A stretch of DNA of 64,000 nt from positions 4,576,001-4,640,000 of the forward strand of contig CAWKDB010000010.1 of NCBI GenBank assembly GCA_963848295.1. The letters are read 5' to 3'. The position numbers and the translations under genes were made by a program. The notes beneath the pieces were generated by a model that searched no databases, was not told the DNA's origin, and was given only the letters and a program-made list of their open reading frames with translations. Position 1 is the first letter of the stretch, and each line of letters begins with the position of its first letter. The stretch is from an uncultured delta proteobacterium (lineage in GTDB: Bacteria; Myxococcota_A; Polyangia; Haliangiales; Haliangiaceae). Below, in pieces: positions 38,057 to 57,674 of the stretch.

Positions 38057-40021
38057 CTACGGGCAGGGGTCGGTGAGTCCGCCGGGCGCTGGGATCGTCG
38101 GCACGCCATCGCGCAAATAGCTCTCGAGGAAGCAACCATACTGGTGCTTCACGCTGTCGAGCTGGCGATAGATGTAGTGCGGATCGATGATGCCGTCGCC
38201 GTTGAACTGCACGACCGCGCGCGTGTAGCCGTCGCGGTTGCCCTTGACCGGGTACGTCATCAGACCGCTGGTGCCGTCGAGCGCGAGTGCGTCCTGCATC
38301 GTCGGCCAGACCTCGTCTCCGGCTTCGGTGTTGCCGTACGACAGTGCGGCGGCGTCGTAGACGTCCGTCGGGAAGTACGTGTCGCCCTTGCCGACCGGCT
38401 CGTAGATATGGCGGATCGGCATGCCGGGCAACGGGCGGTCGCCGAGGCGCGACATCGCCGCGACCGGCTCGGCGATCTCCCAGCCAAGCGCGATCGTGTT
38501 CATCGCCGGATGCAGGAACGTCGCGCTGTCCTCGTCGATCCCGAGCGCCGCGGTCAGCAGGTCCCTCGCGCCGGGCACGCTCGCGGTCTCGAGGATCATC
38601 AGGTTCCAGAAGCCGCCGGCGCCGGTCGGCACGAGCGCGCCGAATCGCGGCTCGATCGAGCCCACCAGGTTCGTGTACATGCCGCCCATCGATTGGCCGC
38701 CGGCCATGCGATTGCTGGCATCGAACGAGTAGCTGCCGGTCGTCGTCGAGATCCCGGTGCAGCCGGCGAGCGTCGCCGCGGGAATCTGCAGCGTCTCGAG
38801 CGCGTCGGTGAGCAGCCGTTGCTCGAACACGCCCTGCTGGAACGTGAACGGCAGCGCCGCGACGTTGTTGATGCTGAGGTACTCGTAGTCGGTCGCACCG
38901 GGGAAGCGCTCGGGGTTGAGCGGCAACGCCGAGGACACCGCGGCGATGCCGTGCAGCGCGACGACATAGCCCGGACCTTTGCCCGGCTCGGGATCGTCGC
39001 TCGAGTCGGGCGAGCGGCCGAGATCGACGAGCCCGCTCGAGAGTCCGCCGGAGCCGTGGAAGAATTGATAGAGCGGAAAGCCGTTCGCGGGCATCGCGAG
39101 CTTCGGCAGCGTGATGACGACCGGGATGGTCATCATCGTCTGCATCTGCGGCACGTCGTTGCCATCGACGACGAAGATGCCATCGCTGTTGAACGGCGGC
39201 GTCCCGGTCTGGAACTGCGGCACGGTGAGCGTGCCGTCGAGTCGGCAGAAGCCGTCGTAGGTGTCGCCGCCGGTGAGCGCGAGGTTGTCGACCGTGACGT
39301 GATACGCGGCGCGGATCGCTTCCGAGCGCTTGAACAGTCGGCCGACCTCGTCGCCGGTCGTGAACACGGTCGCGATGAGCACGTCGTCGGTTGCGATCCC
39401 GGCGGACGCGAGCGCGGGCCACAGCGGCGCATACAGCGTTGCGGCAGCGGCCCCTCGGTCGCCACTCGGCGTCTTGCCGGCGGCGAGCTCGGCGAACGCG
39501 GCGGGTTGCGTGAAGCCCGGTGCGAACGACGTGCGCAGCACGTACGCGTACGTCGTCGCGGGGCGAAGCACGATGCCAGGACGCGGCGCGATGCCGACGA
39601 GGTTCGTCGGCGTATAGCCGTCGGGTACGAGCGTCTGAGCGACGGTGGCGTACTCGGTGCCGAGCTCGGGCGAGGTCGGATCGATGTCGATCAGCACGAC
39701 GTCGCCGCCCGGTGCGATCACATCGCCGATCGCGCGATCGGGAATCGTGGCGGTGAACCGGAAGTACGCCGCGGGCATCGACGTCCAGCCCGTGTGCGCG
39801 GGGACGTTCGACAGCACGTTCTCCACGAGCGGGACGTCGCGCGCGTTGAGGAACCCGGTCATGTCCGGCGCGCCATTCGCGTCGAGCCGGAGGTCCGACG
39901 GGAACGGCAGGTCATAGAACGATTGATCGGCGAGCGGGCTGCTCAGATCGAACACCGCGGTCGATGAGGTCGAATCACCGCCGCACGAGACCACGAGCGC
40001 GACTGCGAGAATCCGTTTCAT
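38057..40021 (-). CDS. Lipoprotein with Ig-like N-term and alpha/beta hydrolase (lipase-like) domain
   Basis: Lipobox VVSC; PFPSD, FHGSGG, GQSMGG nucleophile, GKGD, DPH. Confidence 0.8.
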   Translation of the reverse strand: MKRILAVALVVSCGGDSTSSTAVFDLSSPLADQSFYDLPFPSDLRLDANGAPDMTGFLNARDVPLVENVLSNVPAHTGWTSMPAAYFRFTATIPDRAIGDVIAPGGDVVLIDIDPTSPELGTEYATVAQTLVPDGYTPTNLVGIAPRPGIVLRPATTYAYVLRTSFAPGFTQPAAFAELAAGKTPSGDRGAAAATLYAPLWPALASAGIATDDVLIATVFTTGDEVGRLFKRSEAIRAAYHVTVDNLALTGGDTYDGFCRLDGTLTVPQFQTGTPPFNSDGIFVVDGNDVPQMQTMMTIPVVITLPKLAMPANGFPLYQFFHGSGGLSSGLVDLGRSPDSSDDPEPGKGPGYVVALHGIAAVSSALPLNPERFPGATDYEYLSINNVAALPFTFQQGVFEQRLLTDALETLQIPAATLAGCTGISTTTGSYSFDASNRMAGGQSMGGMYTNLVGSIEPRFGALVPTGAGGFWNLMILETASVPGARDLLTAALGIDEDSATFLHPAMNTIALGWEIAEPVAAMSRLGDRPLPGMPIRHIYEPVGKGDTYFPTDVYDAAALSYGNTEAGDEVWPTMQDALALDGTSGLMTYPVKGNRDGYTRAVVQFNGDGIIDPHYIYRQLDSVKHQYGCFLESYLRDGVPTIPAPGGLTDPCP

Positions 40022-41398: not shown

Positions 41399-42247
41399 TC
41401 ACGGCCACGCCATCGCGACCGCGCCCGCCGCGACCAACGCGGCCCCGGCGATCTGCGGTGCGCGCGGCTTCTCGCCCATCGCTGCGGCGAGCATCGTCGC
41501 GAACAGGACCGAGGTATTGCGCGCGGTCAAAGCGAACCCCGCGCCGCTCGACGCGAGCGCCTGGATCAGCAGCAAGAACGAACCACCGCAGATCACGCCC
41601 ATCAACGCGACCCGCAGTGTACGCGTACGCAGCAACGCGATCGCGACGCGGCGGCCGGCGCGGCCGAGGCGCACGTAGTTGATCGCGGTCGCGAGCCCGA
41701 GCGCGAGCGCGAACACCGCCGACGAGCTGCCGCCCGCCTCCATCGCCGCCTTGTACGCGAGGTGATAGCCGGCGATCGCGCCCGCACAGGCGATCGTCCA
41801 GGGCAGCGCGCGCCGCGGCATCGACGCCGATCCGGACGTGCGGCCGGCCAGCGCGACACCGGCGAGCACCGCGACGCTGCCTGCGATCGCTCCGGGCGTC
41901 GCGACCTCGGAGAACCACGCGATCGACAGCGGCCAGATCACGAGGATCGCGCCGCCGCGCGACACGGTGTAGACCGGCCCGAGCGGGCCACGGTCGAGCG
42001 CGCGTGCGAGCGTGACGAAGTAGGCGAGCTCGAGCACGCCAGCCGACAGCGACCACGCGATCGACGCGGTCGTCGGCAGCGGCGGCACCCCGGTCGCGGC
42101 CCAGCGCGCCCCGGCGACGACGGCGGCGAGCACCGTCGCGACGGTCACCGCGGCGACGAGCGCGCGGTCTTTGTCGGCTTCGAGCCGGAGCAGCGCATTC
42201 CACAGCGCATGCAAGAACGCCGAGGCCAAGACCAGCGCGATGTCCAC
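41399..42247 (-). CDS. EamA/DMT family transporter
   Basis: LASAFLHALWN, VYTVSRG, RNTSVLF, GE motifs; about 10 TMs. Confidence 0.88.
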   Translation of the reverse strand: MDIALVLASAFLHALWNALLRLEADKDRALVAAVTVATVLAAVVAGARWAATGVPPLPTTASIAWSLSAGVLELAYFVTLARALDRGPLGPVYTVSRGGAILVIWPLSIAWFSEVATPGAIAGSVAVLAGVALAGRTSGSASMPRRALPWTIACAGAIAGYHLAYKAAMEAGGSSSAVFALALGLATAINYVRLGRAGRRVAIALLRTRTLRVALMGVICGGSFLLLIQALASSGAGFALTARNTSVLFATMLAAAMGEKPRAPQIAGAALVAAGAVAMAWP

Positions 42248-42259
42248 GTCGGACCCAGC

Positions 42260-43351
42260 TTACGCGCGCCGGGCCGCGGATATTGCATCGCGCTCCGCCC
42301 AGAACGTCGCCATCGTCGGCCACACGCGCTCGGCTGCCTTGCGCGAGACGACCGCGCCGACGTGGCCGCCGCCGAGCGCGACGAGTTGCTTGTCGCGGCT
42401 CGCGACGCCGCCGAAGGTGCGGACTTGCCCCGCGCCGGCACCGGCGCCGAATGGCGGCGCGGTTCCACCGACGAGCGGCGCCGCGCTCGCGAGCGGCACG
42501 ATGTGGTCGTCGGTGAACGCGAGCGCGAGCACCGGGCACGTGATCTGTGCGAGGTCGGCTCGTCGGCCGGCGAGCGCGAAGCCGCCGCGCACGAGCGCGT
42601 TGCCGCGATACAGCTCGTCGATGTAGCGCGCGTAGCACGCGCCCGGGAACGCCACGTTGTCGTTGCCCCAGGTCTCGGTGGCGACGAAACCCTCGAGGAA
42701 CTCGTCGTCCCATGCACGATCGAGCACCGCGACCAGCTTGGAGGCGGCCAGCGTGGGCCTGAGCGCGTGAAAGCTCGCTTGCATCAACCGCCACGGCACG
42801 TTGCCGAACGCGTCGGTCAGTGCGCGGACGTCGAACGCGGCCGTGCGCGTCCACGTCGCCATGATGCCGGCGTGATCGAAATCGATCGGCGCGGCGAGCG
42901 CGACGAACGAGGCGACGTGCTCGGGGAACGCCGCGACATACGCCGCGGCGAGCGTGCCGCCGAGGCAGTAGCCGAGCACGTGGACGGGGCCCGCCGCGTA
43001 GCGCGCCGCGACTCGCACGGCGCGACCGAGGTAACGGCCGCCGATGTCATCCCAGGTCAGGAACCGATCCTCGTCGGTCGGCGTGCCCCAGTCGATGCAG
43101 AATACCTCGTGGCCGTGCGCGACGAGCCACTCGACGAACGAGCGCCCGGGCCCGAGGTCGAGCACGTACCACCGGTTGATCAGCGACGGCACGAGCACGA
43201 TCGGCGTGCGAAAGCGCCGGACGCTCGGCGAGAACCGCAGCAGCCGCCACTTGTTCTCGGTCCACACCACGGTGTGCGGTGTCGAGCCGACCGACGCCGG
43301 GCCCTTCGTCGAACGCTTCGCGAGGGCGAGGAGTGAGCGCAACGGTTTCAA
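42260..43351 (-). CDS. phaC: Polyhydroxyalkanoate synthase, class III PhaC-like (copy 1)
   Basis: TPH.VVW, LVPSLINRWYVLDL, IDWG, GYCLGG (Cys), DDHIVP (Asp), GGHVG (His). Confidence 0.85.
   Translation of the reverse strand: MKPLRSLLALAKRSTKGPASVGSTPHTVVWTENKWRLLRFSPSVRRFRTPIVLVPSLINRWYVLDLGPGRSFVEWLVAHGHEVFCIDWGTPTDEDRFLTWDDIGGRYLGRAVRVAARYAAGPVHVLGYCLGGTLAAAYVAAFPEHVASFVALAAPIDFDHAGIMATWTRTAAFDVRALTDAFGNVPWRLMQASFHALRPTLAASKLVAVLDRAWDDEFLEGFVATETWGNDNVAFPGACYARYIDELYRGNALVRGGFALAGRRADLAQITCPVLALAFTDDHIVPLASAAPLVGGTAPPFGAGAGAGQVRTFGGVASRDKQLVALGGGHVGAVVSRKAAERVWPTMATFWAERDAISAARRA
42410..42466 (-). repeat. In-frame 57-bp double-hairpin coding repeat, copy C
   Basis: GGAACCGCGCCGCCATTCGGCGCCGGTGCCGGCGCGGGGCAAGTCCGCACCTTCGGC, translating to GTAPPFGAGAGAGQVRTFG; absent from the paralog at 52162. 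Confidence 0.85.
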
Positions 43352-43378
43352 GTCGCGGCCTCGCCGAGCCGACGAGCA

Positions 43379-45016
43379 TCACGCATAGAGCGCCTCGAAC
43401 TGGTCGCGCAGCCGCTCGTATACGATCTTGCGCCGCAGCTTGAGTGCCGCGGTCAGCGTCCCGTCTTCGACGGTGAGCGGCGCCTCGACCACGAAGTGGC
43501 GCTTGATCGTCTCGTGGCGCGCGAGCCCGCCGTTGATCGCGTCGATCCGCGCCGCGACCTGGCGCGCACGCTCCCCTTCCGGGACGTCGGCGCGACTCCA
43601 CACCGCGGCGACGAGGTAGGGCCGCGCGTCGCCGTAGACCACGACGCGCTCGATCACCGGGTCGCCTTCGAATCGCGCTTCGATGTTGACCGGTGGGATG
43701 TTCTTCCCGCCGGCGGTGACCAGGATGTCCTTCTTGCGATCGATGATCTGCAGGAACCCATCGGTCGTCCACCGGCCGATGTCGCCGGTGCGAAACCAGC
43801 CGTCGGCCGTGAACGCCGCGGCGGTCGCCTCCGGATCTTTGAAGTAACCGCCGAACACGTTCGGGCCGCGTGCGAGGATCTCACCGTCGGAGTCGAGCCT
43901 GAGCTCGAGCGATGCTAACGGCTTGCCGACGGAATCGAACCGAAACGCATCCGGCCGATTGAGGGTCAGCGTGGGCGACGTCTCGGTCAGGCCATAGCCT
44001 TCGATGATCAAGACGCCGGCGTCGTGCAGCAACTGCTTGATCTCGAGCTTCAGGCCGGCGCCGCCCGACAGGCAGAAGCGCAGTCGACCGCCGGTGACGC
44101 GGCGCAGCGCCTCCTCGCGCGCGACGCGCGAGCTCGTGGCGGCGTTCGCGCCCGGTGGCGCGAGCATCGCGCGCGCGATCTTCTCCCAGTATGCCGGGAC
44201 CGACATGAACACCTGGGGCGCCACCCCGGGCAACACGTCGAGCACGTCCGCTGGAGTCGCGAGATACGTCTCCCAGCCGAGCACGTTGCCGCAACACAGC
44301 TCGCCAAACCCGAAGATGTGGCTCATCGGCAGCCACAAGAGATCTCGGTCGCCCTCCGCGAGCAGCGGCGCGTTGCTGCGCAACCAGTCGGCTCCGTTAC
44401 TGCCGACATTGCGGTGCGTGAGCGGAACGCCTTTCGGATCGCCCGACGTGCCGCTCGTGTAGAGCATCTGCGCGGGGTGATCGAGCTCGAGTGCTCCGAG
44501 CCGGGCGTCGACCAAGGTCGGCGCGGCAGCGTCGCGATCCGACGCCGCGCGAATCGAGTCGTTGTCGTCCGCGAGCCAGGCGCAGGTCTCGAGATCGACG
44601 ACGGTCGGCGCGCGGGGCACGCAGCGTCGCGCTTGCTCGAGACGAGAGACTTGATCGGCTCCGGCCACGAACACGTAACGGATCTCGGCATGCTCGAGGA
44701 TGTAGGCCACTTGCTCGACCGTCGACGCCGGATAGATCGGCACGAACACCGCGCCCGCGGTCTGCGCGCCGAGCGCCGCACTCGCCCATGCCACCGAGTT
44801 CGGTGCAAAGATCGCGACGCGCTCGCCCGGGTCGAGCTCGCGCTCGACGAGCCAGCGCGCGACGCCGCGGATCTGTAACGCGAATTGCCCCCACGTCACC
44901 GGCCGCCATGCGCCACCATCGCGAACCTGAAACCGGGCGCGATGGCGATGAGTCGCCAGCCGATCGAACACCGCGCGCGGCGCCGGTTGGATCGTGAGCA
45001 GCGGCGTGACGTCCAT
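43379..45016 (-). CDS. AMP-dependent acyl-CoA synthetase (FadD15-like)
   Basis: [35 protein letters not shown]. Confidence 0.92.
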
Positions 45017-45020
45017 GATG

Positions 45021-45317
45021 TTAGCTCCGCTTGCTCGTCTCGAGCCGCGCTTCGAGCTGCTCCGCCAAGTCGTAGAGCCGGCTCTCGAGCATGTTGAGCT
45101 TGTGCAGCGCGCGCTCCTGGTCGCGCCGAGTCGACAGCCCGAGCGCAGCCCACCACGCGGTCATCGCGCGATCGGTCGCCGCCTTCGTCTTCATCGCGGC
45201 GGTGAGCATCGCGCCCGCGGGGCCGAGCACCGCGGGATTGGTCATCACCTTCTCCATGTACTGCGCGGTCGCTTGTTCCCAGGCGTTGAAGCCTTGCTTC
45301 CACAGGTCCCAGATCAT
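45021..45317 (-). CDS. Small PhaE-like PHA synthase subunit
   Basis: 98 aa; [19 protein letters not shown] resembles the PhaE C-terminal L.PTR.E motif; GAGGAG RBS; in the phaC operon. Confidence 0.65.
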
Positions 45318-45368
45318 GTGCGTTCTCCTCGTTCTTCCTGTCGGTCGTTCTGTCATTCGTTTCGGTGG

Positions 45369-46177
45369 TCAGTCCTGGCCGAGCGCAAACCGCCTGAGCG
45401 TCGCCGCGGTCGTGAAGTCTGCGTTCGTCTCGTTCGGCTCGCTGTCCGCATGGGCGACCTCGCCGAAACACTCGAAGTAGAACCCGGTCGTGCGCTTGCC
45501 GATCGTCGTCGTGCCGGTCGAAGGCGCGCGCACGAGGTGGGTCCGGACGCGCAGCACCGGCGAGAAGTCGACATACGGCAACTCGAGCTCGCCAGCGCCC
45601 GAGACGTCGATCTCGAACTGATCACTCCCGACAAACGGCAGCCCGTCGATCGTCGCCGCCGCCAACGGCGCGGTCGTCGTGAACGTCTGGCCATCTTCGA
45701 TTGGAAACCGCAGCGCCGCGACCGGCTCGGCATACGCGACCAACGTCTTGCCGGCGCTCGGCATGGCCTCGTGCGACGCCGTGCCATCGAGCCACAGCGC
45801 ACTGGCATCTTGATGATAGATGCCGTCGATCCCGTCGCCAGCGTCGACCACGAATTGTCCGGCGGGAAAGCTCGCCGCATACCACTGGCCGGACAGCGCT
45901 ACGGGCCCGAGCGCGACGATCGTGTCGTCCGGCAACTGGGTCGACAGGTCCCAGACGTCGTCGGTCGCGACCAGGTCGACCGTTCTATTTTCACCTTGAT
46001 AATAGGACAGCGTCGCCCCGAGCGCGATCGGCAGCTCCTCGGCCGTGATCTCGCCATCGCGGTTCGGCACGCACGACGGCAACATCGGCACCGGCTGTGG
46101 TTGCGGGGTCTCGTTCGTCCCGCACCCTGAAGCGAGTACGAGCACGAGTAGCGAGACGGGTCGAGGTTGGTGAAGCA

Positions 46178-46178
<1 letters not shown>
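45369..46178 (-). CDS. Lipoprotein (paralog of 48826-49728)
   Basis: Lipobox ASGC; CVPNRDGEI..ELP, WDLS, ECFGEVA. Confidence 0.75.
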
Positions 46179-48825
<2,647 letters not shown>

Positions 48826-48829
<4 letters not shown>

Positions 48830-49728
48830 GGGGCGAGCCTCTCGACTTCCGCGTCGTTCGAGAACTCGGTGCCGGACTCGAAGCTCTGCGACGTCACGGT
48901 CGCGACCGGTCCGAAGCATTCCGCGACCCACGCGAAGGTCTTGTTCGTCAGCAACGTCGCGACGCCTTCGGTGCGTTCGAGTGTCGTCGCGACGCGGAGC
49001 ACCGGGAACGCTCCGTACGGCGTGGTCATCGTGCCGACTTGGTCGACGCTCGAGTCGTATTCCTCGCTGTAGCCGGTGATCACGCCGTCGGCATAACCGG
49101 TGACGGTCGAAGTCGAGGTCCAGGTGTCGCCCGCTTTGAACGGGACCGCGAGGATCTTCGCCGGCGGGTCATAGGCCAGCTCGGTCTTCGTGCCGCCGCC
49201 GGTCGGCGACACGACGCCCAGCAAGGTCACGCCACTCGCGTTGACCTCGAACACGCCGAGCAGAGTCGACGAGGACGACAGCGGCGTCGCGTAGGTCGCC
49301 GCGGTGAAGTCCGCGGCCCACCACGCTCCGGTGGGCGAGGCGAGCGCGACGGTCGAGTCCGCGTCGCTCGAGAGCTGCCCGGACAAGTCCCACGTGCGCG
49401 AGCCGTCGCCGTTCGCGGTGCCCGCGGTGCTCCACGTCGCGTTCGTCGCGATCCGGAACTTCGCGCTCTGGCCGGCCGCGAGCGGGAGCTCGGAGCCGTC
49501 GATCGAGCCGTCGTGATTCGGCGTGCACACCCCAGTCGCGCCATCGCTGCCAGAGCCGTCGTTCGCGACGCCCGCGTCGAGGTCGGTCGGGCTGCACGTG
49601 TGGTCAGCGCGGCAAAACTTCGATGCACAATCGGCATCGACCGAGCAGGTCTCGCCGCCGCCGTTGCCGCAGCCCAGCATCAGTATGCTGCAATGCAGCG
49701 CAAAGATCGAAATCGGGCTGCGTGGCAT
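48826..49728 (-). CDS. Lipoprotein with Cys-rich N-term (paralog of 45369-46178)
   Basis: Lipobox MLGC; C..DADC...C....C; CTPNHDGSI..ELP, WDLS, ECFGPVA. Confidence 0.75.
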
Positions 49729-49810
49729 CGGCGGGCACGCTACGACCCCGGTAACACGGCTGTCAAGTCGGTTTTTGCGCTGCAACAAAAAACGGTCTTG
49801 CAGTGCGGCA
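49685..49810. promoter_or_regulatory. Three putative PhaR boxes and a sigma70-like promoter for the minus-strand operon
   Basis: TGCAATGCAGCG (49689), TGCGCTGCAACA (49776), TGCAGTGCGGCA (49799); minus-strand TTGACA (49766-61) N18 TAGCGT (49742-37). Confidence 0.65.
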
Positions 49811-49833
49811 ACCGGCCCCGTAAGGTGCCCGCG

Positions 49834-50433
49834 GTGGCGGTCCTGATCAAGAAGTACGGCAACCGCCGGCTCTACGACACCGGGGAGAGTCGCTACGTCA
49901 CGCTCGAGGAGCTCGCGACGAAGATCCGGAGCGGCGCGGATCTGCGCGTCGTCGATGCACAGAACGGCGAAGATCTGACGCAGGCCACGCTCACCCAGAT
50001 CGTGCTCGAGACCGGGAACGCCGCGAAATTCTTACCGGTGCAGCTGCTCACGCAGATGATCCGGCTATCCGACGATTCGCTCGCCGAGTTCTTCAGCCGC
50101 TATGTGACCGGTGCGCTCGATCTCTACTTGCAGGCGAAGCGCGGCGTGCAGACGCTCGCCTCGTACAACCCGTTGACGCAGATTCCGATGGCGGCGACCG
50201 ACGCGTTGACCCGGATGTGGATGGGCGGTCCGTTCGGAGGCGGCTATCAACAACCATACGCCGGCGGCTACGCTGCGCCGCCGCCTCCCGAGCCGATGCC
50301 GGTGGTCGCGACGCAACCATCGCCCGAGCCGGAGCGGGTGACCGAAGTCGCTGCGATGCGGCGCGAGCTCGACGAGCTCAAGCAAGCGATTCGCGAAGGC
50401 CTTCGGCCGAAACCTCGGAAGAAGAAAGCATAG
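49834..50433 (+). CDS. phaR: PHA synthesis repressor PhaR
   Basis: IKKYGNRRLYDT..SRYVTL, V.DA..GEDLT..TL.QI..E. Confidence 0.92.
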   Translation: MAVLIKKYGNRRLYDTGESRYVTLEELATKIRSGADLRVVDAQNGEDLTQATLTQIVLETGNAAKFLPVQLLTQMIRLSDDSLAEFFSRYVTGALDLYLQAKRGVQTLASYNPLTQIPMAATDALTRMWMGGPFGGGYQQPYAGGYAAPPPPEPMPVVATQPSPEPERVTEVAAMRRELDELKQAIREGLRPKPRKKKA

Positions 50434-51679
50434 CCACCTCGGGCTTGGGTACGAGTCGCTTGCGCAGCGCGAGCACCGCGCCGGACATCCCCACAAGACC
50501 GGCGCCGACGACGATCTCGATCGTCGTTGCGAGCGAGAGCCCGGTCGCACGCGCGAGCGCCGGGACCAGGGTCGGTACGAACGCGGCGAGCAGCGCGCCA
50601 ACGTGATAGACGATGCCGATCGCGCGGGCGCGCACCGGCTCGGCGAACAAGCTCGTCGTCAACATCGGGGTCACGCCCGAATAGCCGACGCCGAGCGCGC
50701 CGCCGAGGAATGCCCCGAGCGTCGCAACGTGCGGCCACGCGCCGACGAACAGCGGCAGCGCCGGCACCATCAGCAACGCCGGCGTGACGAGCGCGGCGAT
50801 CATCCCGAACCGATTTGCGATCCAGCCCGCGGCGACCACCCCGACGAGCATGCCGACGTTGAAGTAGATGAGGCCGCTCCAGCCGATGGCCGCGGCGCCT
50901 GCGAGACACCGCCCATCCGACGTGGCGCATCCTGCTCGCTCGACCTGCATGCCGATGTACGAAGTCGTCATCCCGTAGTAGACGACAAACCCGAGCGCCA
51001 TCACGAGCGAGCCGAGCACGAGCATCGTTCGGACTTGTGGCACCGCGAGATCGCCGAGCGCACCACGCGACTTCTCTCGCGGTCTTGCGCGCGCGCCGTC
51101 GTCGGGAACGAGCATGCGGATCGGCAGCACCGCGAGCGCCGGCACCGCCGCGATCAAGAACATCGCGCGCCAGCCGTACGCGGGGACGATCCACGACGCG
51201 AGCGCGGCCGCGAGCAAGAAGCCGATCGGCCAACCTGCCTGCAGCAGCCCCGACGCGAAGCCTCGGCAGCGCGGCGGCAAGCTCTCCATCGCGAGCGCGG
51301 TGCCTGCGGTCCACTCCGCGCCCATGCCGAATCCGAACAGCGTGCGCAGCACGAGCAGCCACGCGAATGACGGCGCGAAGTAGATCGCAGCGTCGAACGC
51401 CGCGAACCACAGCAGTGACAACATCAGTGGCAGGCGCCGCCCCCAGCGATCCGCGATCCAACCAGCGATCACTCCGCCCGCGAGGCGGACGATCAACGTC
51501 AGCGTGAGCGAACCGGCGACCGCAGTCGTCGACACGCCGAACTCCTTGCTCACGCTCGTGGTGACACAGATGAAGATCGTGAAGTCGAACGCGTCGAGCA
51601 CCCAGCCGACCCACGCGGCTGCAAACGCTGCCCATTGAGCGCGCGTAGGCTCGCGCCACCATCGTGCGGTTCCATCCAT
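50378..51679 (-). CDS. MFS transporter (SHS/NanT/JEN carboxylate-type)
   Basis: GWVLDAFDF, ADRWGRR, GFGMGAEW, RGFASGLLQAG. Confidence 0.88.
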   Translation of the reverse strand: MDGTARWWREPTRAQWAAFAAAWVGWVLDAFDFTIFICVTTSVSKEFGVSTTAVAGSLTLTLIVRLAGGVIAGWIADRWGRRLPLMLSLLWFAAFDAAIYFAPSFAWLLVLRTLFGFGMGAEWTAGTALAMESLPPRCRGFASGLLQAGWPIGFLLAAALASWIVPAYGWRAMFLIAAVPALAVLPIRMLVPDDGARARPREKSRGALGDLAVPQVRTMLVLGSLVMALGFVVYYGMTTSYIGMQVERAGCATSDGRCLAGAAAIGWSGLIYFNVGMLVGVVAAGWIANRFGMIAALVTPALLMVPALPLFVGAWPHVATLGAFLGGALGVGYSGVTPMLTTSLFAEPVRARAIGIVYHVGALLAAFVPTLVPALARATGLSLATTIEIVVGAGLVGMSGAVLALRKRLVPKPEVAMLSSSEVSAEGLRESLA

Positions 51680-51704
51680 GGGCGATCGGTATCGAAGGTG
51701 ATGA

Positions 51705-51826
51705 TGCGACGCAATACAAAAATTGTTCACGTCACATAACATGCTAGTATAACAGGTATAATACCTAACATAAATGCTGCGATGCAGCATCAACGCCTTG
51801 ACGTTCGCGATCACAGTCCTTAGGGT
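51705..51826. promoter_or_regulatory. PhaR boxes and sigma70 promoter upstream of the phasin-phaC operon
   Basis: TGCGACGCAATA (51705), palindrome ATGCTGC-GAT-GCAGCAT (51774-51790), TTGACG (51798) N17 TAGGGT (51821); AT-rich island. Confidence 0.7.
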
Positions 51827-51858
51827 GGCAGCACAACCGACTGACAAGGACTCTCACT

Positions 51859-52161
51859 ATGACGACTCAGAAGACCGAAACCGAAGCGAAGACCGACTCG
51901 AAGACCGCGGCGTTCGATCCGACCGCCGCGTGGGCCGCCTCCCAGCAGGCGTTCCACGAGATGATGACCGAGGCGTTCGAGCGTGCTCAGGCGCTGTCGG
52001 GCGAGTACGTCGCGCTGGAGGCGCAGATGATCGCGAAGGCGCGCGAAGCGATCGCGCACTGGGCGCAGCTCGCGCAAGACGCGATCACCTATAGCTCCCA
52101 GTTGGCGGCGCAGGCACGCAAGGTCGGCGCCGATGCGGCGCGCAAGATGGGCGTCGCCTGA
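51859..52161 (+). CDS. Phasin-like PHA granule protein
   Basis: 100-aa Ala-rich amphipathic helical protein; AAGGA RBS; behind PhaR-like boxes and directly upstream of phaC. Confidence 0.6.
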   Translation: MTTQKTETEAKTDSKTAAFDPTAAWAASQQAFHEMMTEAFERAQALSGEYVALEAQMIAKAREAIAHWAQLAQDAITYSSQLAAQARKVGADAARKMGVA

Positions 52162-53211
52162 ATGACCGAGGCGCTGCTCGGCTGGCCACGCGCGATGTCG
52201 GATGCATGGACCGACGTCGCGCTCGCGACCCTCGGCATCACGGCGCCGGCGCACGCACTGATGCCGACGCCGCGCGACGAGCTCGCGCTCCACGGCGGAT
52301 CGAAGCTCTATCACTTTCAACCGGCCGGGCCGGGCATCCCGCTGTTGCTCGTGCCGTCGCTGATCAATCGCTGGTACGTGCTCGATCTGCGAGCCGGCGC
52401 CAGCCTCGTCGAGGCGCTGGTCGGCGCCGGGTTCGACGTGTGGTGTCTCGACTGGGGCGTGCCCGAAGCCGAAGACCGCTATCTCGATTGGGAAGCGGTA
52501 CTAGAGCGGCTAGGGCGCGCGACCCGGCGGGTTCGGCGCGAGACCGGCGCGGCGCAGCTCGGTCTACTCGGCTACTGCATGGGGGGAACGCTCACCGCGA
52601 TCCACGCCGCACAGCATCCGAGCGAGCTCGCCGCGCTGGTCACGCTCGCGGCGCCGATCGACTTCGCGCGCGGTGGCATGCTGCGGGCGATGGTCGATCC
52701 GAGCTGGTTCGATCCCGCCGCGGTCGCCGATGCGGGCAACGTCGCGCCGTCGCAGATGCAAGCCGGCTTCGTCGCGTTGCGACCGACGCTGGATCTCGCC
52801 AAGCTCGTCTCGCAACCCGAGCTCGCGATCGATCCGGCGAGTCGCGCGAGCTTCGCGGCGCTCGACGCCTGGGCGAGCGATCAGATTCCGTTTCCCGGCG
52901 ACGCGTATCGCCGCTACATCCGCGATCTCTACCAACGCAACGAGCTCGTCGCCGGCAGCCATCGCGTCGGTGGCAAGCCCGTCGAGCTGTCGGCGATCGC
53001 GTGCCCGGTGCTCGCGATCACCGCGTCACGCGACGCGATCTGCCCTCCGCCAGCGGCTACCGCGTTGCTCGACCTCGTGGGCTCGACCGACACGGCGACG
53101 CTCGAGGTCGCGGGCGGTCACGTCGGTGCGGTGGTTGGCAGCCGCGCAGCGCGCGAGATGTATCCGGCGCTCGTCGCCTGGCTCGGGCCGCGGCTGTTCA
53201 CGTCGCGATGA
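52162..53211 (+). CDS. phaC: Polyhydroxyalkanoate synthase, class III PhaC-like (copy 2)
   Basis: LVPSLINRWYVLDL, LDWG, GYCMGG, RDAICP, GGHVG. Confidence 0.85.
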   Translation: MTEALLGWPRAMSDAWTDVALATLGITAPAHALMPTPRDELALHGGSKLYHFQPAGPGIPLLLVPSLINRWYVLDLRAGASLVEALVGAGFDVWCLDWGVPEAEDRYLDWEAVLERLGRATRRVRRETGAAQLGLLGYCMGGTLTAIHAAQHPSELAALVTLAAPIDFARGGMLRAMVDPSWFDPAAVADAGNVAPSQMQAGFVALRPTLDLAKLVSQPELAIDPASRASFAALDAWASDQIPFPGDAYRRYIRDLYQRNELVAGSHRVGGKPVELSAIACPVLAITASRDAICPPPAATALLDLVGSTDTATLEVAGGHVGAVVGSRAAREMYPALVAWLGPRLFTSR

Positions 53212-54451: not shown

Positions 54452-54781
54452 TCAGCCGCCGGTGATGACGTTCGGCGAGCCACCACCTGGCTTCATATTG
54501 CCGACGCCGCCGCAGTGGGTGTCTTGATCGCCCTCGCGATGCGCTGCGAGGTTGTTGATCATCACGGTGCTGCTGCCCGCTTGCGCGATCCACGTGTTCG
54601 GGCCGCAGCAGGCGGCGTGCGTGCCGTTGTCGCTGACGCGGACTGCCGGCTTGCCATTGACGTTCACGTCGGGTGAGCCCTTGATCGCCGGACCCTGGAC
54701 GGAGTGCGGTGCACATCCCGGGCACCCGTGAACATCCGAAGGGCAGACAGAAATGTCTCCGAGCCGAGATTGCGGCGGCAT
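54452..54781 (-). CDS. PAAR-domain spike-tip protein
   Basis: SRLGD, GSPDVNVNGKPAVRVSD, GSSTVMINNLAAHREGD, Cys/His residues. Confidence 0.9.
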   Translation of the reverse strand: MPPQSRLGDISVCPSDVHGCPGCAPHSVQGPAIKGSPDVNVNGKPAVRVSDNGTHAACCGPNTWIAQAGSSTVMINNLAAHREGDQDTHCGGVGNMKPGGGSPNVITGG

Positions 54782-55608
54782 CAGGTAAATCCTCCAGGCG
54801 ACATCATCGCGGTGCCGACCGCCGGAATCGGCGTGATCGGCGTGCCTCCGGTGGCGACCGCCATGACGTTGTTCACCATCGTCGACAACTTCCAGATGTT
54901 GTAGCACTGCTCGAACGCGAAGCTGATCGACTCGAACAGCTGCGACGAGAACGGCGCGGTCGGATCCCCGTGCTGCGCGACCATCTGCATCTTCAGCACG
55001 TCGGCGCTGATCGAGACCGGCACTTGAACGAACATTCCGAACGGGGTCGGGACATTCGGCATCGGCGGCGCGACCGGCGTCGGTACGGCTGCGTACGCCG
55101 GATACCACGGCAGCGCGGCGGCCTTGACCGTCCCGGTAAACGTCAGCCACGCATTGCTGATTACGGTCGCGATCGTCGTCGTGTATTTTATCTGCATTGG
55201 CGTACTCATTGGCGCGCCGCCGGACAGGATCAGCGGGATCAAGGGCACCCCGACGATCTGACCGCCCGATACGAGCGGACCGGATACGACGAAGCCGACC
55301 ATCGTCGACGTCGACTGCCAGTCGGACCACGCCGAGCAGATCGCCGAGCAGATGTTGTCGATGAAGCCACCGAACGTCGAGATCAGCATCTTCTGGGTAT
55401 CGGTGTGGTACTTGTTCAGCGTTGCCGGGACGAACAGCGGTGGACTGCCGGGTGACGTCGCCTTCTCGTCCGCTTTGAACGCGTTGCCGTATTGCTGAGC
55501 GTCAGGATCGCCGCTCGGGTCCTGCCAGTTGGTCGGCACGCGCAGCGCGAAGCTCATGAACTTCGCCCGCGCGAGCTGCTGCATTTCGGAGGCTTGGGGC
55601 GCCGGCAT
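54781..55608 (-). CDS. Hypothetical protein translationally coupled to PAAR
   Basis: 275-aa ORF; TGATG overlap with the PAAR gene. Confidence 0.8.
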   Translation of the reverse strand: MPAPQASEMQQLARAKFMSFALRVPTNWQDPSGDPDAQQYGNAFKADEKATSPGSPPLFVPATLNKYHTDTQKMLISTFGGFIDNICSAICSAWSDWQSTSTMVGFVVSGPLVSGGQIVGVPLIPLILSGGAPMSTPMQIKYTTTIATVISNAWLTFTGTVKAAALPWYPAYAAVPTPVAPPMPNVPTPFGMFVQVPVSISADVLKMQMVAQHGDPTAPFSSQLFESISFAFEQCYNIWKLSTMVNNVMAVATGGTPITPIPAVGTAMMSPGGFT

Positions 55609-55709
55609 GGTCTAGTGGTTACGAGCTTATACGGACGAAGCCCCCTGCGTGTTCCTACTCGCAAACCCTTAAGAGGGTCGCCCGGATCCATATGATAGCC
55701 TTTGCAAAG

Positions 55710-56093
55710 ATGTCGGGATCGCCAAAGCAAAAACTCCACCCCGAGACCGGCGAGGAGTTGACCGAAGACCGCGAGGTCTACCTGCGCGATGGCCGCAAGC
55801 TGGTGGTGTCCGAGGCCGGGATCGATCAGCTAGTCGAGATCCGCAACGGTGCCGGCCTGGTCGAGATTCGCATCCAGCTCACCGAGCAGGGGCCGGTCGT
55901 CCAAGTCGAGGCCGCCCGGCTGCAGCTCAAGGCCAGTGAGGCGATCGAGATCGCCTCGCCTCATGTCGCGATCGCCGGCAGCGAGAAGCTCGAGCTCACC
56001 GGCGGCAAGGTCGGCGTCCATGCCGAAGACGACCTCGACGTCGACTCCAAAGAAGAGATCCGGATCAACGGCAAGATGATCTGGCTGAACTGA
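55710..56093 (+). CDS. Small protein resembling a VgrG/Gp5 C-terminal beta-helix segment
   Basis: Approximately 8-residue alternating repeats (LQLKASEAIEIAS..LELTGG..), C-term INGKMIWLN; divergent from the PAAR operon. Confidence 0.55.
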   Translation: MSGSPKQKLHPETGEELTEDREVYLRDGRKLVVSEAGIDQLVEIRNGAGLVEIRIQLTEQGPVVQVEAARLQLKASEAIEIASPHVAIAGSEKLELTGGKVGVHAEDDLDVDSKEEIRINGKMIWLN

Positions 56094-56096
56094 CGT

Positions 56097-57674
56097 CTAC
56101 CCGCGATACCGCTTGCGCAGCTCGGTCTTCTGAAACTTACCGGTCGAGGTCCGCGGGATCGCGTCGATCACCTCGAACGCGTCGGGCAGCCAGAACTTCG
56201 GGAACCGCTCGGCGAGAAAGGCCCGCATCTCCTCGGGGCTCGCCGATGCGCCCGGCTTGAACGCGACGACCGCGAGCGGCCGTTCGCTCCACTTCGCGTC
56301 GGGCACGCCGATCACCGCCGCTTCGCGGACCGCCGGATGATCCATCAGCGCCGTCTCGATCGCCGCCGAGGCGATCCATTCACCGCCGCTCTTGATCAGA
56401 TCGGCGACGCGGTCGACGAGGCGAACGAACCCGTACTGATCGACGGTCGCGACATCGCCGGTGCGAAAGTAGCCATCGCTCGTCCACCGCTCCGGCGTTT
56501 GACCACCGGTGTACTCGTCGGCGATCCACGGGCCGCGGACGAGGACTTCGCCCGAGCTCTGATCGTCGTGCGCGACGTCGCCCTGGTCGCCGACCACTCG
56601 GAGATCGAGCAGCGGAGGCGGCACACCTTGCTTCGCGCGCAGCTTGTAGCCGATCGCCTCGTCGAGTGCGGCGAGCTCGGGCGACAGCCGTGACACCAGA
56701 CCGATCGGCGAGGTCTCGGTCATCCCCCACGCATGGACGAGACGCAGGCCGAGCCGATCGAAGTCGCGGATCAACTGCTCCGGGACCGCGGCACCACCGA
56801 CGATCATCTGCACGTTCGGCAACAGATGCCATTTGCCGGGCGCGGCGTCGAGCGCTTCGCGAATACCGATCCAGATCGTCGGGACGCCGGCGGCAAACGT
56901 GACGCGCTCGCTCGCCATGAGGTCCAACAGGCTCGGTGGGTCGAGGAACGGCCCGGGGAACACGAGCTTGGCGCCGACCATCGTCGCGATGAACGGCAGG
57001 CCCCAGGCGTTGACGTGAAACATCGGCACCACGGGCAACAGCGTGTCGGCGCGGACGAGTCCGAGTTGGTCGGGCAGCGCGGCGACCAGCGTGTGCAGCA
57101 CGGTCGAGCGATGCGTGTAGACGACGCCTTTGGGATCGCCGGTCGTGCCGCTCGTGTAGCAGGTGCCGAGCGGATCGCTCTCGGCGAGCACCGGCAACGC
57201 GATGTCGTCGCGCGCGGAAGCGAGCAGCGCTTCGTAGCTCTCGTGCTCGCCGGCGTTGCCGACCACGATGATCCGCTCGAACTTCGCGCCGGCGGCGATG
57301 ACCTTCGTGAGCAACGGCAGCAGCACGTCGTCGACGATCACGATGCGGTCGCGGCCGTGGGTCGCGATGAACGCGATCTCCGGCGGCGCCAGTCGTAGAT
57401 TGAGCGTGTGGGTCACGGCGCCGGCCAGCGGGATCGCGAAGTAGGCCTCGAGGTGCTCGACGTGGTTCCACATGAGCGACGCGACGCGATCGCCCTTGCG
57501 GATCCCGCCGGCGATCAGGGCGCGCGCGAGCTTGCGGGCGCGCGTGATCATCGCGCCGTAGGTCGAGCGATGCAGGCTTCGATCGGGGCGGCGCGAGACG
57601 ATCTCGACGTCGCCGAACTGCTCGGCGCGGCGCGCGATGTGATCGATCGTGAGCCCGACATCCATCATCGTCAT
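56097..57674 (-). CDS. Medium/long-chain acyl-CoA ligase (AlkK/DmdB-like)
   Basis: YTSGTTGDPKG, PMFHVNAWG, AWGMTETSP, FRTGD, IKSGGEWI. Confidence 0.92.
   Translation of the reverse strand: MTMMDVGLTIDHIARRAEQFGDVEIVSRRPDRSLHRSTYGAMITRARKLARALIAGGIRKGDRVASLMWNHVEHLEAYFAIPLAGAVTHTLNLRLAPPEIAFIATHGRDRIVIVDDVLLPLLTKVIAAGAKFERIIVVGNAGEHESYEALLASARDDIALPVLAESDPLGTCYTSGTTGDPKGVVYTHRSTVLHTLVAALPDQLGLVRADTLLPVVPMFHVNAWGLPFIATMVGAKLVFPGPFLDPPSLLDLMASERVTFAAGVPTIWIGIREALDAAPGKWHLLPNVQMIVGGAAVPEQLIRDFDRLGLRLVHAWGMTETSPIGLVSRLSPELAALDEAIGYKLRAKQGVPPPLLDLRVVGDQGDVAHDDQSSGEVLVRGPWIADEYTGGQTPERWTSDGYFRTGDVATVDQYGFVRLVDRVADLIKSGGEWIASAAIETALMDHPAVREAAVIGVPDAKWSERPLAVVAFKPGASASPEEMRAFLAERFPKFWLPDAFEVIDAIPRTSTGKFQKTELRKRYRG

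Follow-up and report, generated by a model that had tools for sequence, protein, structure and literature searches.

Class III polyhydroxyalkanoate (PHA) synthases favour short monomers. Among the closest described systems to the locus reported here are the class III phaEC loci of the Allochromatium vinosum type with the PhaR-phasin circuit, with which it shares a PhaC of ~350 residues with a Cys-Asp-His triad, a candidate PhaE-like partner and a PhaR-type regulator whose predicted boxes match the published PhaR core YGCRNYGCR, as given in the accessible part of its source (PMC12542648). Unlike those loci, it has a PhaE-like protein of only ~100 residues, two old PhaC paralogues that score below the TIGR01836 cut-off and no phaAB in the cluster, and its putative operon also takes in a ligase and a four-part envelope module. 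In Bdellovibrio, the depolymerases PhaZ Bd3709/Bd2637 free dimers and trimers from prey PHA and related depolymerase families are found in the genomes studied here, though the accessible portion of that report describes neither a dedicated pore nor a tethered periplasmic esterase, nor any re-polymerisation (PMC4834554). The PhaG-FadD1/AlkK route of Pseudomonas putida activates free hydroxy acids with CoA and then polymerises them to PHA, but, as far as the available text goes, the cell itself supplies the acids, the synthase is of class II and there is no envelope module (10.64898/2025.12.18.695248). Among envelope proteins, the 18-stranded AlgE and Occ (OprD-type) channels resemble the predicted barrel of this locus in fold (Z 22.9 and 22.6) and in their polar lumen; they differ in that identity is 9-14%, the barrel has no Pfam match to alginate export (PF13372, E up to 0.05) and no alginate synthase or TPR partner, and it is sometimes fused to an esterase. 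The group 4 capsule proteins GfcB/GfcC/GfcD likewise place lipoproteins beside an outer-membrane barrel, and a weak YmcC-like fold and a weakly predicted binding add to the likeness, although GfcD is larger, with 26 strands according to the accessible part of the source (PMC8592465), there is no wza/wzc here and the fold match is near background level.

A literature search, with subscription journals and preprint supplements outside its coverage, returned no description of the cluster, and nothing on TIGR04551 or on a myxobacterial PHA synthase with phaE; by title and start of abstract, none of the papers on polyhydroxyalkanoate, Myxococcota and phaC concerned it, and among those listed on uptake none mentioned the oligomers. 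In the literature searched, both the passage of PHA breakdown products across the outer membrane of Gram-negatives and the source of PHA in predatory myxobacteria are unsettled, and the cluster names testable parts for each.

Organisation of the locus

The window, the 64,000-nucleotide stretch of Haliangiaceae DNA that was analysed, carries every gene of the minus-strand run named in the first-pass annotation, from L1 to the EamA-like gene, and all genes lie within 41399..53211 (Table 1). The first three are joined by overlapping stop and start codons (GTGA for L1/fusion and TGATG for fusion/L2), and L1 and L2 are indeed paralogous, with 32-33% identity. phaR diverges from this run and the MFS gene, which has 56 bp in common with the end of phaR, diverges from the small protein-PhaC-2 pair. 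Rfam gave no match within 36000-58000. Calling the small protein a phasin agrees with its position and regulation and lacks Pfam support, as a single member of its family (1/18) has a Phasin_2 match, at E 0.056, and none a convincing one. The reported absence of phaA, phaB and phaJ holds for the ORFs scanned around the cluster; thiolases, MaoC domains and a reductase orthologue are present elsewhere in the genome. In the host genome, which is 85% complete, no PhaB, BdhA or acetoacetyl-CoA synthetase scored over cut-off, and the best phaB-like match was set aside as it sits in an unrelated fatty-acid/polyketide-like cluster.

Table 1. Genes, domains and candidate regulatory sites of the locus (window positions).
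Feature	Position	Strand	Description or basis
Lipoprotein L1	48826..49728	-	300 aa; first operon gene; no Pfam/NCBIfam match
Esterase-barrel fusion	46178..48829	-	Hydrolase domain, Gly-Ser linker and barrel
Fusion hydrolase domain, lipid-anchored alpha/beta-hydrolase	47921..48829 (end approximate)	-	Abhydrolase_1, E 2.7e-33
Gly-Ser linker of fusion	47758..47920 (approximate)	-	Sequence
Predicted 18-stranded outer-membrane beta-barrel, TIGR04551 family	46178..47683	-	TIGR04551, 305.8 bits
Lipoprotein L2	45369..46178	-	269 aa; open beta-sheet, with weak likeness to YmcC/BDI_3050
Mini-PhaE-like subunit	45021..45317	-	98 aa; resembles C-terminal part of PhaE
Acyl-CoA ligase, FadD11/long-chain-like	43379..45016	-	AMP-binding and AMP-binding_C_3
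PhaC-1, class III-like synthase	42260..43351	-	Cys129, Asp282, His330
EamA/DMT-like membrane protein	41399..42247	-	TIGR03340, E 1.5e-20
PhaR-type regulator	49834..50433	+	PF07879, 89.5 bits
MFS, sialate:H+ symporter-like carboxylate type	50378..51679	-	TIGR00891, E 5.6e-58, below cut-off
Small helical protein, a phasin on grounds of position and regulation alone	51859..52161	+	Strict box upstream in 62/64
PhaC-2, class III-like synthase	52162..53211	+	Cys139, Asp291, His320
Main PhaR-type box	49776..49784		Matrix score 26.4, best in genome; 9 nt upstream of -35
Second PhaR-type box	49689..49697		Score 18.6; inside L1 signal-peptide coding region
PhaR-type box upstream of MFS gene	51705..51713		Score 18.3
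PhaR-type box (51778-51786) and candidate promoter TTGACG, 17 nt, TAGGGT, of small protein-PhaC-2 unit	51778..51826	+	Score 22.0; promoter read by eye
Candidate sigma70-type operon promoter TTGACA, 18 nt, TAGCGT	49737..49766	-	Read by eye, just above L1 start

Conservation of the gene cluster

Conservation of the gene neighbourhood had been set beforehand as a test that could refute the proposed island. In 80 related loci with long flanks, which carry the same envelope cassette (type A), PhaC lies beside the envelope genes in 78/80 and phaR and the ligase are each present in 74/80, with the exact order lipoprotein-esterase-barrel-lipoprotein-mini-PhaE-ligase-PhaC in 66/80. The linkage withstands rearrangement and the exchange of the ligase for PRK06187-type enzymes, and a class III-like PhaC is found in 98/101 lipoprotein-positive genomes. 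The linkage of the core genes is thus confirmed and conserved. The EamA gene, the MFS gene and the fusion, counted as parts of the system by the first-pass annotation, are lineage extras: EamA is present in 9/80 of these loci, 13/80 barrel-selected loci and 0/60 phylum-wide loci, the last leading us to reject it as a core uptake transporter; the window-type MFS, in 9/80, is one of three interchangeable transporter types; and the esterase and barrel are fused in 35/127 loci and separate genes in the remainder, which rules out the fusion as a defining trait. The three symporter types alternate, 28/80 loci having one of them and 1 having two.

PhaR-type boxes

The regulator passes PHB_acc_N (PF07879) with 89.5 bits against a cut-off of 25, and falls below that of TIGR01848 (97.4 against 109.45 bits). 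The boxes noted earlier in both divergent regions in the form TGC-N3-GC(A/G) are weak on their own, since this loose pattern occurs 194 times in the window, but the strict, palindromic TGC-N3-GCA is far commoner in relatives than chance would give, being present in 103/114 phaR/L1 upstream regions (18.8 on average in shuffles, at most 28) and in 62/64 phasin upstream regions (7.7 on average, at most 14). With a weight matrix trained on relatives, the sites at 49776 and 51778 rank first and second genome-wide. The box followed by TTGAC points toward the operon in 80/114 loci and away in 3, and the codons of the second box are kept as LHCS/LQCS/LLCS in close L1 homologues. A consensus promoter scan gave no site at either divergent region. 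Judged from these boxes, the cluster is likely to be under PhaR control.

Synthases, ligase and reductase

The catalytic triad (Cys in G-x-C-x-G, Asp and His) is invariant in 49/49 PhaC-1, and the cysteine is kept in 31/34 PhaC-2, with serine in 3; both copies in the window are intact. TIGR01836 is the best family for both, yet PhaC-1 (231.2 bits) and PhaC-2 (239 bits) lie below its 365.3-bit cut-off, and in a quick version of the tree PhaC-2 forms a separate clade as an old paralogue of PhaC-1. The mini-PhaE, present in 69/80 loci, matches only positions about 232-317 of PhaE (PF09712, E 7.5e-4, below cut-off), and one relative matches TIGR01834 at E 7e-7. Going by these families, PhaC with the mini-PhaE would polymerise hydroxyacyl-CoA. 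The ligase scores 230 bits against NF038343, far below the cut-off of 950; its long-chain-like character is at odds with the short monomers of class III synthases and weighs against the salvage of PHA considered below. A FabG-like reductase (PRK08217-like) occurs in 34/80 loci, so that monomers can also arise inside the cell, and the host genome has an orthologue of 65-72% identity at G000:C10:2326066-2326833.

Envelope proteins

The esterase domain has a lipobox (LVAGC), a nucleophile elbow (GHSWG) and Asp and His motifs, and among relatives a lipobox-like motif is found in 124/127 and the Ser elbow in 126/127. It is below the PHA depolymerase cut-offs of NF050089 (74.5 against 300) and TIGR02240 (53 against 250.6). 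The barrel passes the curated TIGR04551 cut-off (305.8 against 300 bits), and two stronger members of that family are encoded elsewhere in the host genome. Its structure model (pLDDT 93.7) has 18 strands in an AlgE/MOMP/Occ fold, with Z scores of 24.1 for MOMP, 22.9 for AlgE, 22.6 for OccD2 and 22.4 for OpdQ; the best Foldseek match is AlgE (E 7e-15, TM 0.56/0.64) and its ESM Atlas neighbours are the alginate-export family at 0.97. The lumen is predicted to be polar, with 11 basic and 10 acidic conserved positions assigned by strand parity, a method that misplaces some strands. As the net charge is balanced we claim no selectivity, and a polar lumen would suit a hydrophobic polymer poorly.

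L1 has 633 homologues, and searching 1.84 billion proteins by profile turned up 964 relatives of the lipoproteins, none with a name. A sequence search of the PDB with profiles of the barrel and the lipoproteins returned no useful match. The model of L2 (pLDDT 95.8) weakly resembles BDI_3050 (4fvs; Z 9.5, rmsd 4.2, 167 residues aligned) and YmcC, which we take to be GfcB (Z 6.6, rmsd 4.6, 152 aligned), against a background whose best Z is 7-8; Foldseek gave a GfcB/YmcC-like fold at E 0.015-0.06, and LolA-like carriers are also neighbours at low Z. A predicted complex weakly suggests that the barrel may bind L2, with a score of 0.58 against 0.00 for the best control, at least 67% of contacts agreeing between runs and partner pLDDT of at least 84, on a mark reached by 116/157 solved and 2/215 mismatched pairs and, at scores of 0.60 or less, by only 18 solved pairs and both mismatches.

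A second cassette and links to depolymerases

In other Myxococcota the same place is occupied by a second envelope cassette (type B), unrelated to type A by sequence, and from its position and by exclusion we infer that barrel B is equivalent to the type A barrel. Type B was found in 50/401 genomes, 47 of them with PhaC and only 2 also with type A. One or other cassette is present in 149/401 sampled Myxococcota genomes, about a third, and in 143/165 PhaC-positive against 6/236 PhaC-negative genomes, related genomes here not being independent. In the type B loci (n=20; locus L188 is without gene calls) a PHB-depolymerase-family gene lies 1-4 genes from the barrel in 4, and a surface lipase-like protein, hydrolase X, is encoded in 9. 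Neighbours in L173-L175 pass the 150-bit cut-off of NF050058, the type-1 scl-PHA depolymerase family, with 274.4, 259.7 and 172.3 bits, while the L176 gene falls below it (136.1 bits) and passes TIGR01840. Locus L153 holds a depolymerase-like gene, an SSS symporter, esterases, barrel B, a lipoprotein, PhaC, a ligase, a mini-PhaE and phaR within 15 kb. Hydrolase X, whose best match is Bacillus LipA (E 1e-13) with a weak match to PhaZ7 (E 0.004), has a MYXO-CTERM-like tail just under cut-off and is also found in five type A loci.

While the link to depolymerases is strong for type B, for the type A cassette of the window it is indirect. The host encodes a type-1 extracellular PHA depolymerase with MYXO-CTERM at G000:C8:13867-15012 (NF050058, 304.6 against 150 bits), with no good PhaR box at this gene among the top 40 matrix matches. 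Such enzymes score over cut-off in 31/80 type A genomes against 13/80 genomes without a detected cassette or PhaC, a contrast confounded by the smaller size of the latter, and genome-level co-occurrence with extracellular depolymerases was discarded as support because it discriminates poorly.

Proposed salvage of external polyester

It would seem somewhat likely, with a probability of about 0.6, that polyester outside the cell is cut, its oligomers cross the pore and are trimmed in the periplasm, and the products are activated with CoA and stored again as PHA. A surface or secreted depolymerase, assigned by family (the host enzyme above, or those in-cluster in other lineages), would cut PHA to short hydroxy-acid oligomers, which may then pass the outer membrane through the polar barrel of predicted fold, helped by L1 and L2. 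In the periplasm the predicted lipid-anchored esterase, tethered here to the barrel N-terminus, would shorten them to monomers, to be imported by a carboxylate symporter (in the window the MFS, in other loci SSS or a different MFS, and frequently unlinked). The ligase would form hydroxyacyl-CoA for PhaC and mini-PhaE. PhaR would keep the operon and the phasin unit repressed until it is drawn off by granules, so that feedback would be positive. In keeping with such a route, Bradymonas builds up PHA during predation, according to the accessible part of PMC7460792; the Pseudomonas putida route and the release of dimers and trimers by the Bdellovibrio enzymes are further precedents. The alternating symporters, the polar lumen, the depolymerase of the host and its lack of PhaB, BdhA and acetoacetyl-CoA synthetase over cut-off also speak for it. 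Salvage, as suggested by the first-pass annotation, gains from the surface hydrolases and PHB-depolymerase-family enzymes adjoining type B and loses EamA and MFS as core parts. Weighing against it are the presence of TIGR01840 in only 13/101 genomes and of hydrolase X in only 17/80 type A genomes, none of the host's class, and the lack of a linked inner-membrane transporter in 52/80 loci.

More tentatively, and at rather less than even odds, Myxococcota may have a locus devoted to the use of polyester, put together at least twice out of unrelated components and comprising a surface depolymerase, an outer-membrane channel with lipoprotein partners, a tethered periplasmic esterase, a symporter, a ligase and a synthase, through which prey or detrital PHA would enter predator granules without breakdown to acetyl-CoA. 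If true, carbon in soils, sludge and sediments would pass by a short route from the reserves of prey to those of the predator, PHA oligomers would have an outer-membrane channel specific to them, a subgroup of TIGR04551 and two families of lipoprotein would gain a function, and the biological recycling of PHA could draw on these parts.

Other readings of the cluster

The direction of import and storage may be the same and the food another ester (lysolipids, monoacylglycerols or hydroxy-fatty-acid esters of prey), the ligase forming acyl-CoA and beta-oxidation with the FabG-like reductase supplying monomers. We consider this unlikely, though the FadD11/long-chain-like ligase, the similarity of hydrolase X to Bacillus lipase A, the occurrence of the reductase and the LolA-like neighbours of L2 all speak for it, and the accessible text on Bradymonas ascribes its PHA to beta-oxidation (PMC7460792). 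The PHB-depolymerase-family genes beside barrel B and the polar 18-stranded model are against it, the latter being unlike FadL. The FadL channel is hydrophobic and 14-stranded.

Improbable, in our judgement, is that the module serves for turnover or recovery of PHA products of the cell itself, such as leaked acids, oligomers or the granules of lysed siblings, in place of foreign polymer. The operon has a phasin-type operator layout and so would switch on once granules are present in the cell, PhaR is a repressor of depolymerases in Sinorhizobium according to the accessible part of PMC12542648, and no intracellular PhaZ was found in the 85% complete host genome; against this, such a PhaZ scores over cut-off in 2/4 relatives tested, and the surface-anchored depolymerase- and lipase-type genes of the clusters point to a solid substrate outside the cell.

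Export of a polyester or hydroxy-acyl oligomer to the surface, as in synthase-dependent polysaccharide export with a periplasmic trimming enzyme, was the alternative originally offered and is now disfavoured. It keeps a small probability, since AlgE, an exporter, and a GfcB/YmcC-like lipoprotein are among the best fold matches; in capsule export the barrel GfcD has GfcB and GfcC as binding partners (PMC8592465, accessible part), and each of the two old PhaC paralogues could have a product of its own. The uptake channels OccD2, OpdQ and MOMP score as well as AlgE, however, the lumen is polar, the linked transporters belong to symporter families, extracellular hydrolases are linked, and the recurrent neighbours in 60 loci include no conserved inner-membrane synthase or translocase and no TPR scaffold. 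Import is favoured over export in that type B usually adjoins a surface-anchored hydrolase. A chance neighbourhood of unrelated genes, which would hold only for EamA, a kinase and a deacetylase as local neighbours in close relatives, is refuted for the core genes by their linkage in 78/80 loci, the shared operator layout and the independent second cassette in the same slot.

A conserved cluster joins an envelope module to PHA synthase

The cluster, built around a type A envelope module (lipoproteins L1 and L2, an esterase and a TIGR04551 barrel), is real and conserved. Loci were chosen on their envelope genes and not on PhaC: 60 listed loci picked on score and contig size were combined with the best 80 of 587 barrel loci from a species-level collection, giving 134 after removal of 6 duplicates; in 80 of them the barrel is flanked by 6 kb or more on each side. 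All 80 long-flank loci contain the esterase and the lipoprotein, the ligase is present in 74 and mini-PhaE in 69, and the order lipoprotein–esterase–barrel–lipoprotein–mini-PhaE–ligase–PhaC is exact in 66. The linkage of the envelope genes to phaC and phaR proposed in the first-pass annotation holds among them (PhaC in 78/80 loci, phaR in 74/80). EamA and the MFS transporter, which it had included in the system, drop out, with EamA and MFS of the window's type each found in 9 of the 80; other MFS occur in 4, an SSS symporter in 16, a phasin-like gene in 48 and a FabG-like reductase in 34. A lipobox-like motif, by a relaxed pattern, is found in the esterase of 124/127 loci, and esterase and barrel are fused in 35/127. 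Where loci are rearranged the envelope module remains with PhaC, with PRK06187-type enzymes substituting for the ligase and, in two cases, TetR in place of PhaR. Among 401 genomes sampled from the phylum, L2 was detected in 101, usually in two copies spaced by about 3.4 kb, and 98 of these 101 have a class III-like PhaC. In two loci, L047 and L068, the cassette adjoins TetR, a 458-aa PhaC and an HpaB-like gene, which we take to be 4-hydroxybutyryl-CoA-dehydratase-like, a hint that the monomer may be 4-hydroxybutyrate.

Both the synthase and the regulator are variants on known types. The literature searched, which left out most subscription journals, yielded no paper on the cluster and no description of the envelope module or its coupling to PHA storage.

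In the window, the gene content, order and stop/start overlaps described earlier were borne out by the sequence and family scans. The best family for both PhaC-1 and PhaC-2 is the class III model, yet they score under its cut-off (231 and 239 versus 365); the Cys-Asp-His residues are retained in both. In a quick tree of 77 PhaC rows (loci L011-L070 and the window) the majority belong to one of two old clades. Only PhaE's C-terminal part is matched by the 98-aa subunit, the barrel domain lies narrowly over the TIGR04551 cut-off (305.8 versus 300), and neither L1 nor L2 matched a family in Pfam or NCBIfam. The name phasin for the small gene preceding PhaC-2 stands by position and regulation but not as a family assignment, those two being its sole basis. 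The GC content of the cluster, close to that of the remainder of the window, gives no sign of an island. Named homologues assign the window to a Kofleriaceae-type myxobacterium.

The envelope operon has the promoter layout of the phasin gene

Strict TGC-N3-GCA boxes are found in 103/114 phaR/L1 upstream regions (shuffle mean 18.8) and in 62/64 phasin upstream regions (shuffle mean 7.7). A box followed by TTGAC points toward the envelope operon in 80/114 regions and the opposite way in 3/114, and toward the phasin gene in 58/64 with 1/64 the opposite way; since this orientation is common to both promoters, the envelope operon has the phasin promoter layout. With a matrix trained on the relatives, the two main sites of the window, at 49776 and 51778, rank first and second in the genome. 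The motif agrees with the PhaR core of a published study, where PHB is described as relieving PhaR repression (PMC12542648), making these candidate operators by sequence. The short distance between the candidate -10 element and the L1 start, together with the lack of an obvious ribosome-binding site, suggests that the L1 transcript may be leaderless.

Predicted structures of the barrel and L2

There are 18 long strands in the barrel model (pLDDT 93.7). Foldseek ranks AlgE first, while a wide structure search gave MOMP (Z 24.1, rmsd 4.2, 348 aligned), AlgE (Z 22.9, rmsd 4.7, 353 aligned), OccD2 (Z 22.6, rmsd 3.7, 321 aligned) and OpdQ (Z 22.4, rmsd 4.0, 329 aligned); with scores so comparable, the direction of transport cannot be read from the fold. 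By a rough parity method, the conserved positions facing the lumen are polar, with 11 basic and 10 acidic. L2 is modelled as an open beta structure (pLDDT 95.8), its nearest folds, BDI_3050 (Z 9.5, rmsd 4.2, 167 aligned) and YmcC (Z 6.6), being near background. A predicted barrel–L2 complex scored 0.58 against 0.00 for the best control, with contact agreement of at least 67% and partner pLDDT of at least 84, which weakly suggests binding, as scores of 0.60 or below came from 18/157 solved pairs and from both passing mismatches (of 215).

A second, unrelated cassette accompanies PhaC

Around PhaC genes in genomes without L2 (20 stretches, 19 genomes), many stretches encode a distinct lipoprotein, a lipoprotein esterase, a distinct apparent outer-membrane barrel of 500-560 aa, judged by its signal peptide and aromatic C-terminus (type B), and often X, an exported hydrolase of 520-640 aa whose elbow reads AHSxGG and whose tail is MYXO-CTERM-like. 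Comparing the profiles of types A and B showed no homology, with 0.8% probability for the barrels and 16% for the lipoproteins, the latter confined to the signal peptide. Barrel B is found in 50/401 genomes, 47 of them with PhaC, and co-occurs with type A in 2, versus 12.6 expected were the two types independent; kin genomes are themselves not independent. One or other type is present in 143/165 PhaC-positive versus 6/236 PhaC-negative genomes.

Among 20 barrel B loci, one of them not readable, X occurs in 9, PhaC in 7 and a PHB-depolymerase-family gene in 4; in three of these last four PhaC is distant, encoded elsewhere in the genome. In one locus, L153, every part lies inside 15 kb. The best match of X is Bacillus lipase A (E 1e-13), with PhaZ7 a weak one (E 0.004).

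A candidate route for import and storage

We consider that the cluster serves import and storage in some form, with a probability of roughly 0.8; that polyester fragments are the substrate is somewhat favoured. We infer that hydrolysis would be followed by import, trimming, activation and storage. The import reading draws on the linked transporters, which belong to symporter families, and on the recurrence of outward-facing hydrolases in the equivalent type B cassette; the ligase points to free acids as its input. A polar pore and the lack of a dedicated inner-membrane machine are a better fit for small acids than for a hydrophobic polymer.

Weighing against the reading, exporter folds top both the Foldseek and Atlas lists for the barrel, and a linked symporter is absent from 52/80 type A loci. 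Also counted against the reading, a depolymerase model passes in 31/80 type A versus 13/80 negative genomes, the latter being smaller, and TIGR01840 is found in 13/101 lipoprotein-positive genomes. X is present in 17 of the 80 type A genomes tested (of 101) versus 2/80 negative genomes, and its absence from the window genome's class among those 80 likewise weighs against the reading. The long-chain-like appearance of the ligase also counts against it.

Single steps have precedents in published work: a predator cuts prey PHA into dimers and trimers (PMC4834554), and PHA is made from free hydroxy acids in a ligase-dependent manner (10.64898/2025.12.18.695248). PHA is likewise described as building up in Bradymonas during predation (PMC7460792), and type A genes occur in a Bradymonadales record (L145). 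How native PHA is released is given as unknown in a review (PMC7147478).

Related genes in the source genome

On its contig C8 the source genome (G000; 7.78 Mb, 85% complete) has a gene for a type-1 extracellular PHA depolymerase that bears a MYXO-CTERM, and the genome also holds several thiolases and two MaoC domains over cut-off; at this completeness PhaB, BdhA, acetoacetyl-CoA synthetase and intracellular PhaZ gave no match over cut-off. Further features of this genome and of the relatives are collected in the table.

Features of the window, the source genome (G000) and related loci
Location	Strand	Feature	Remarks
Window 38057-40021	-	654-aa lipoprotein, GQSMG elbow; possibly a secreted lipase	Matched by neither Pfam nor NCBIfam; close to the cluster in 10/140 loci; two paralogues elsewhere in the genome
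Window 49689-49766		Candidate -10 element, roughly 8 nt upstream of the start of L1	A PhaR-type box lies inside the L1 signal-peptide codons
Window 54452-56093		Small genes, by motif presumably akin to injection-system PAAR/spike-associated proteins	Weak Pfam matches only, in the two that were scanned
Window 56097-57674	-	Second acyl-CoA ligase	PRK06187, 537 versus cut-off 476; ligase at the equivalent position in several close relatives
G000 C10:532258-541762		Eight copies of an identical 21-nt site with near-identical ORFs, hence a long tandem array	Spacing about 1.35 kb
G000 C10:1228581-1232420		Canonical TIGR04551 barrels in tandem	391 and 415 bits; away from PHA genes
G000 C10:2326066		Orthologue of the cluster's FabG-like reductase	
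G000 C10:3513543-3514506		Weak PhaC-like match; the gene is probably synthase-like and either broken or divergent	Split over two frames
G000 C10:4295465-4296061		Another protein whose N-terminal domain is PhaR-like	43% over 83 aa; away from PHA genes
L153:13257-14255		KAS III-like gene within the type B cluster	Similar genes in L154, L177 and L178
L173:9372-12128		Depolymerase ORF running on into a C-terminal region like the neighbouring lipoprotein of L174	Either a true fusion or read-through
L175:9715-12063		Depolymerase ORF extended as in L173	Either a true fusion or read-through; MYXO-CTERM-like motif mid-ORF
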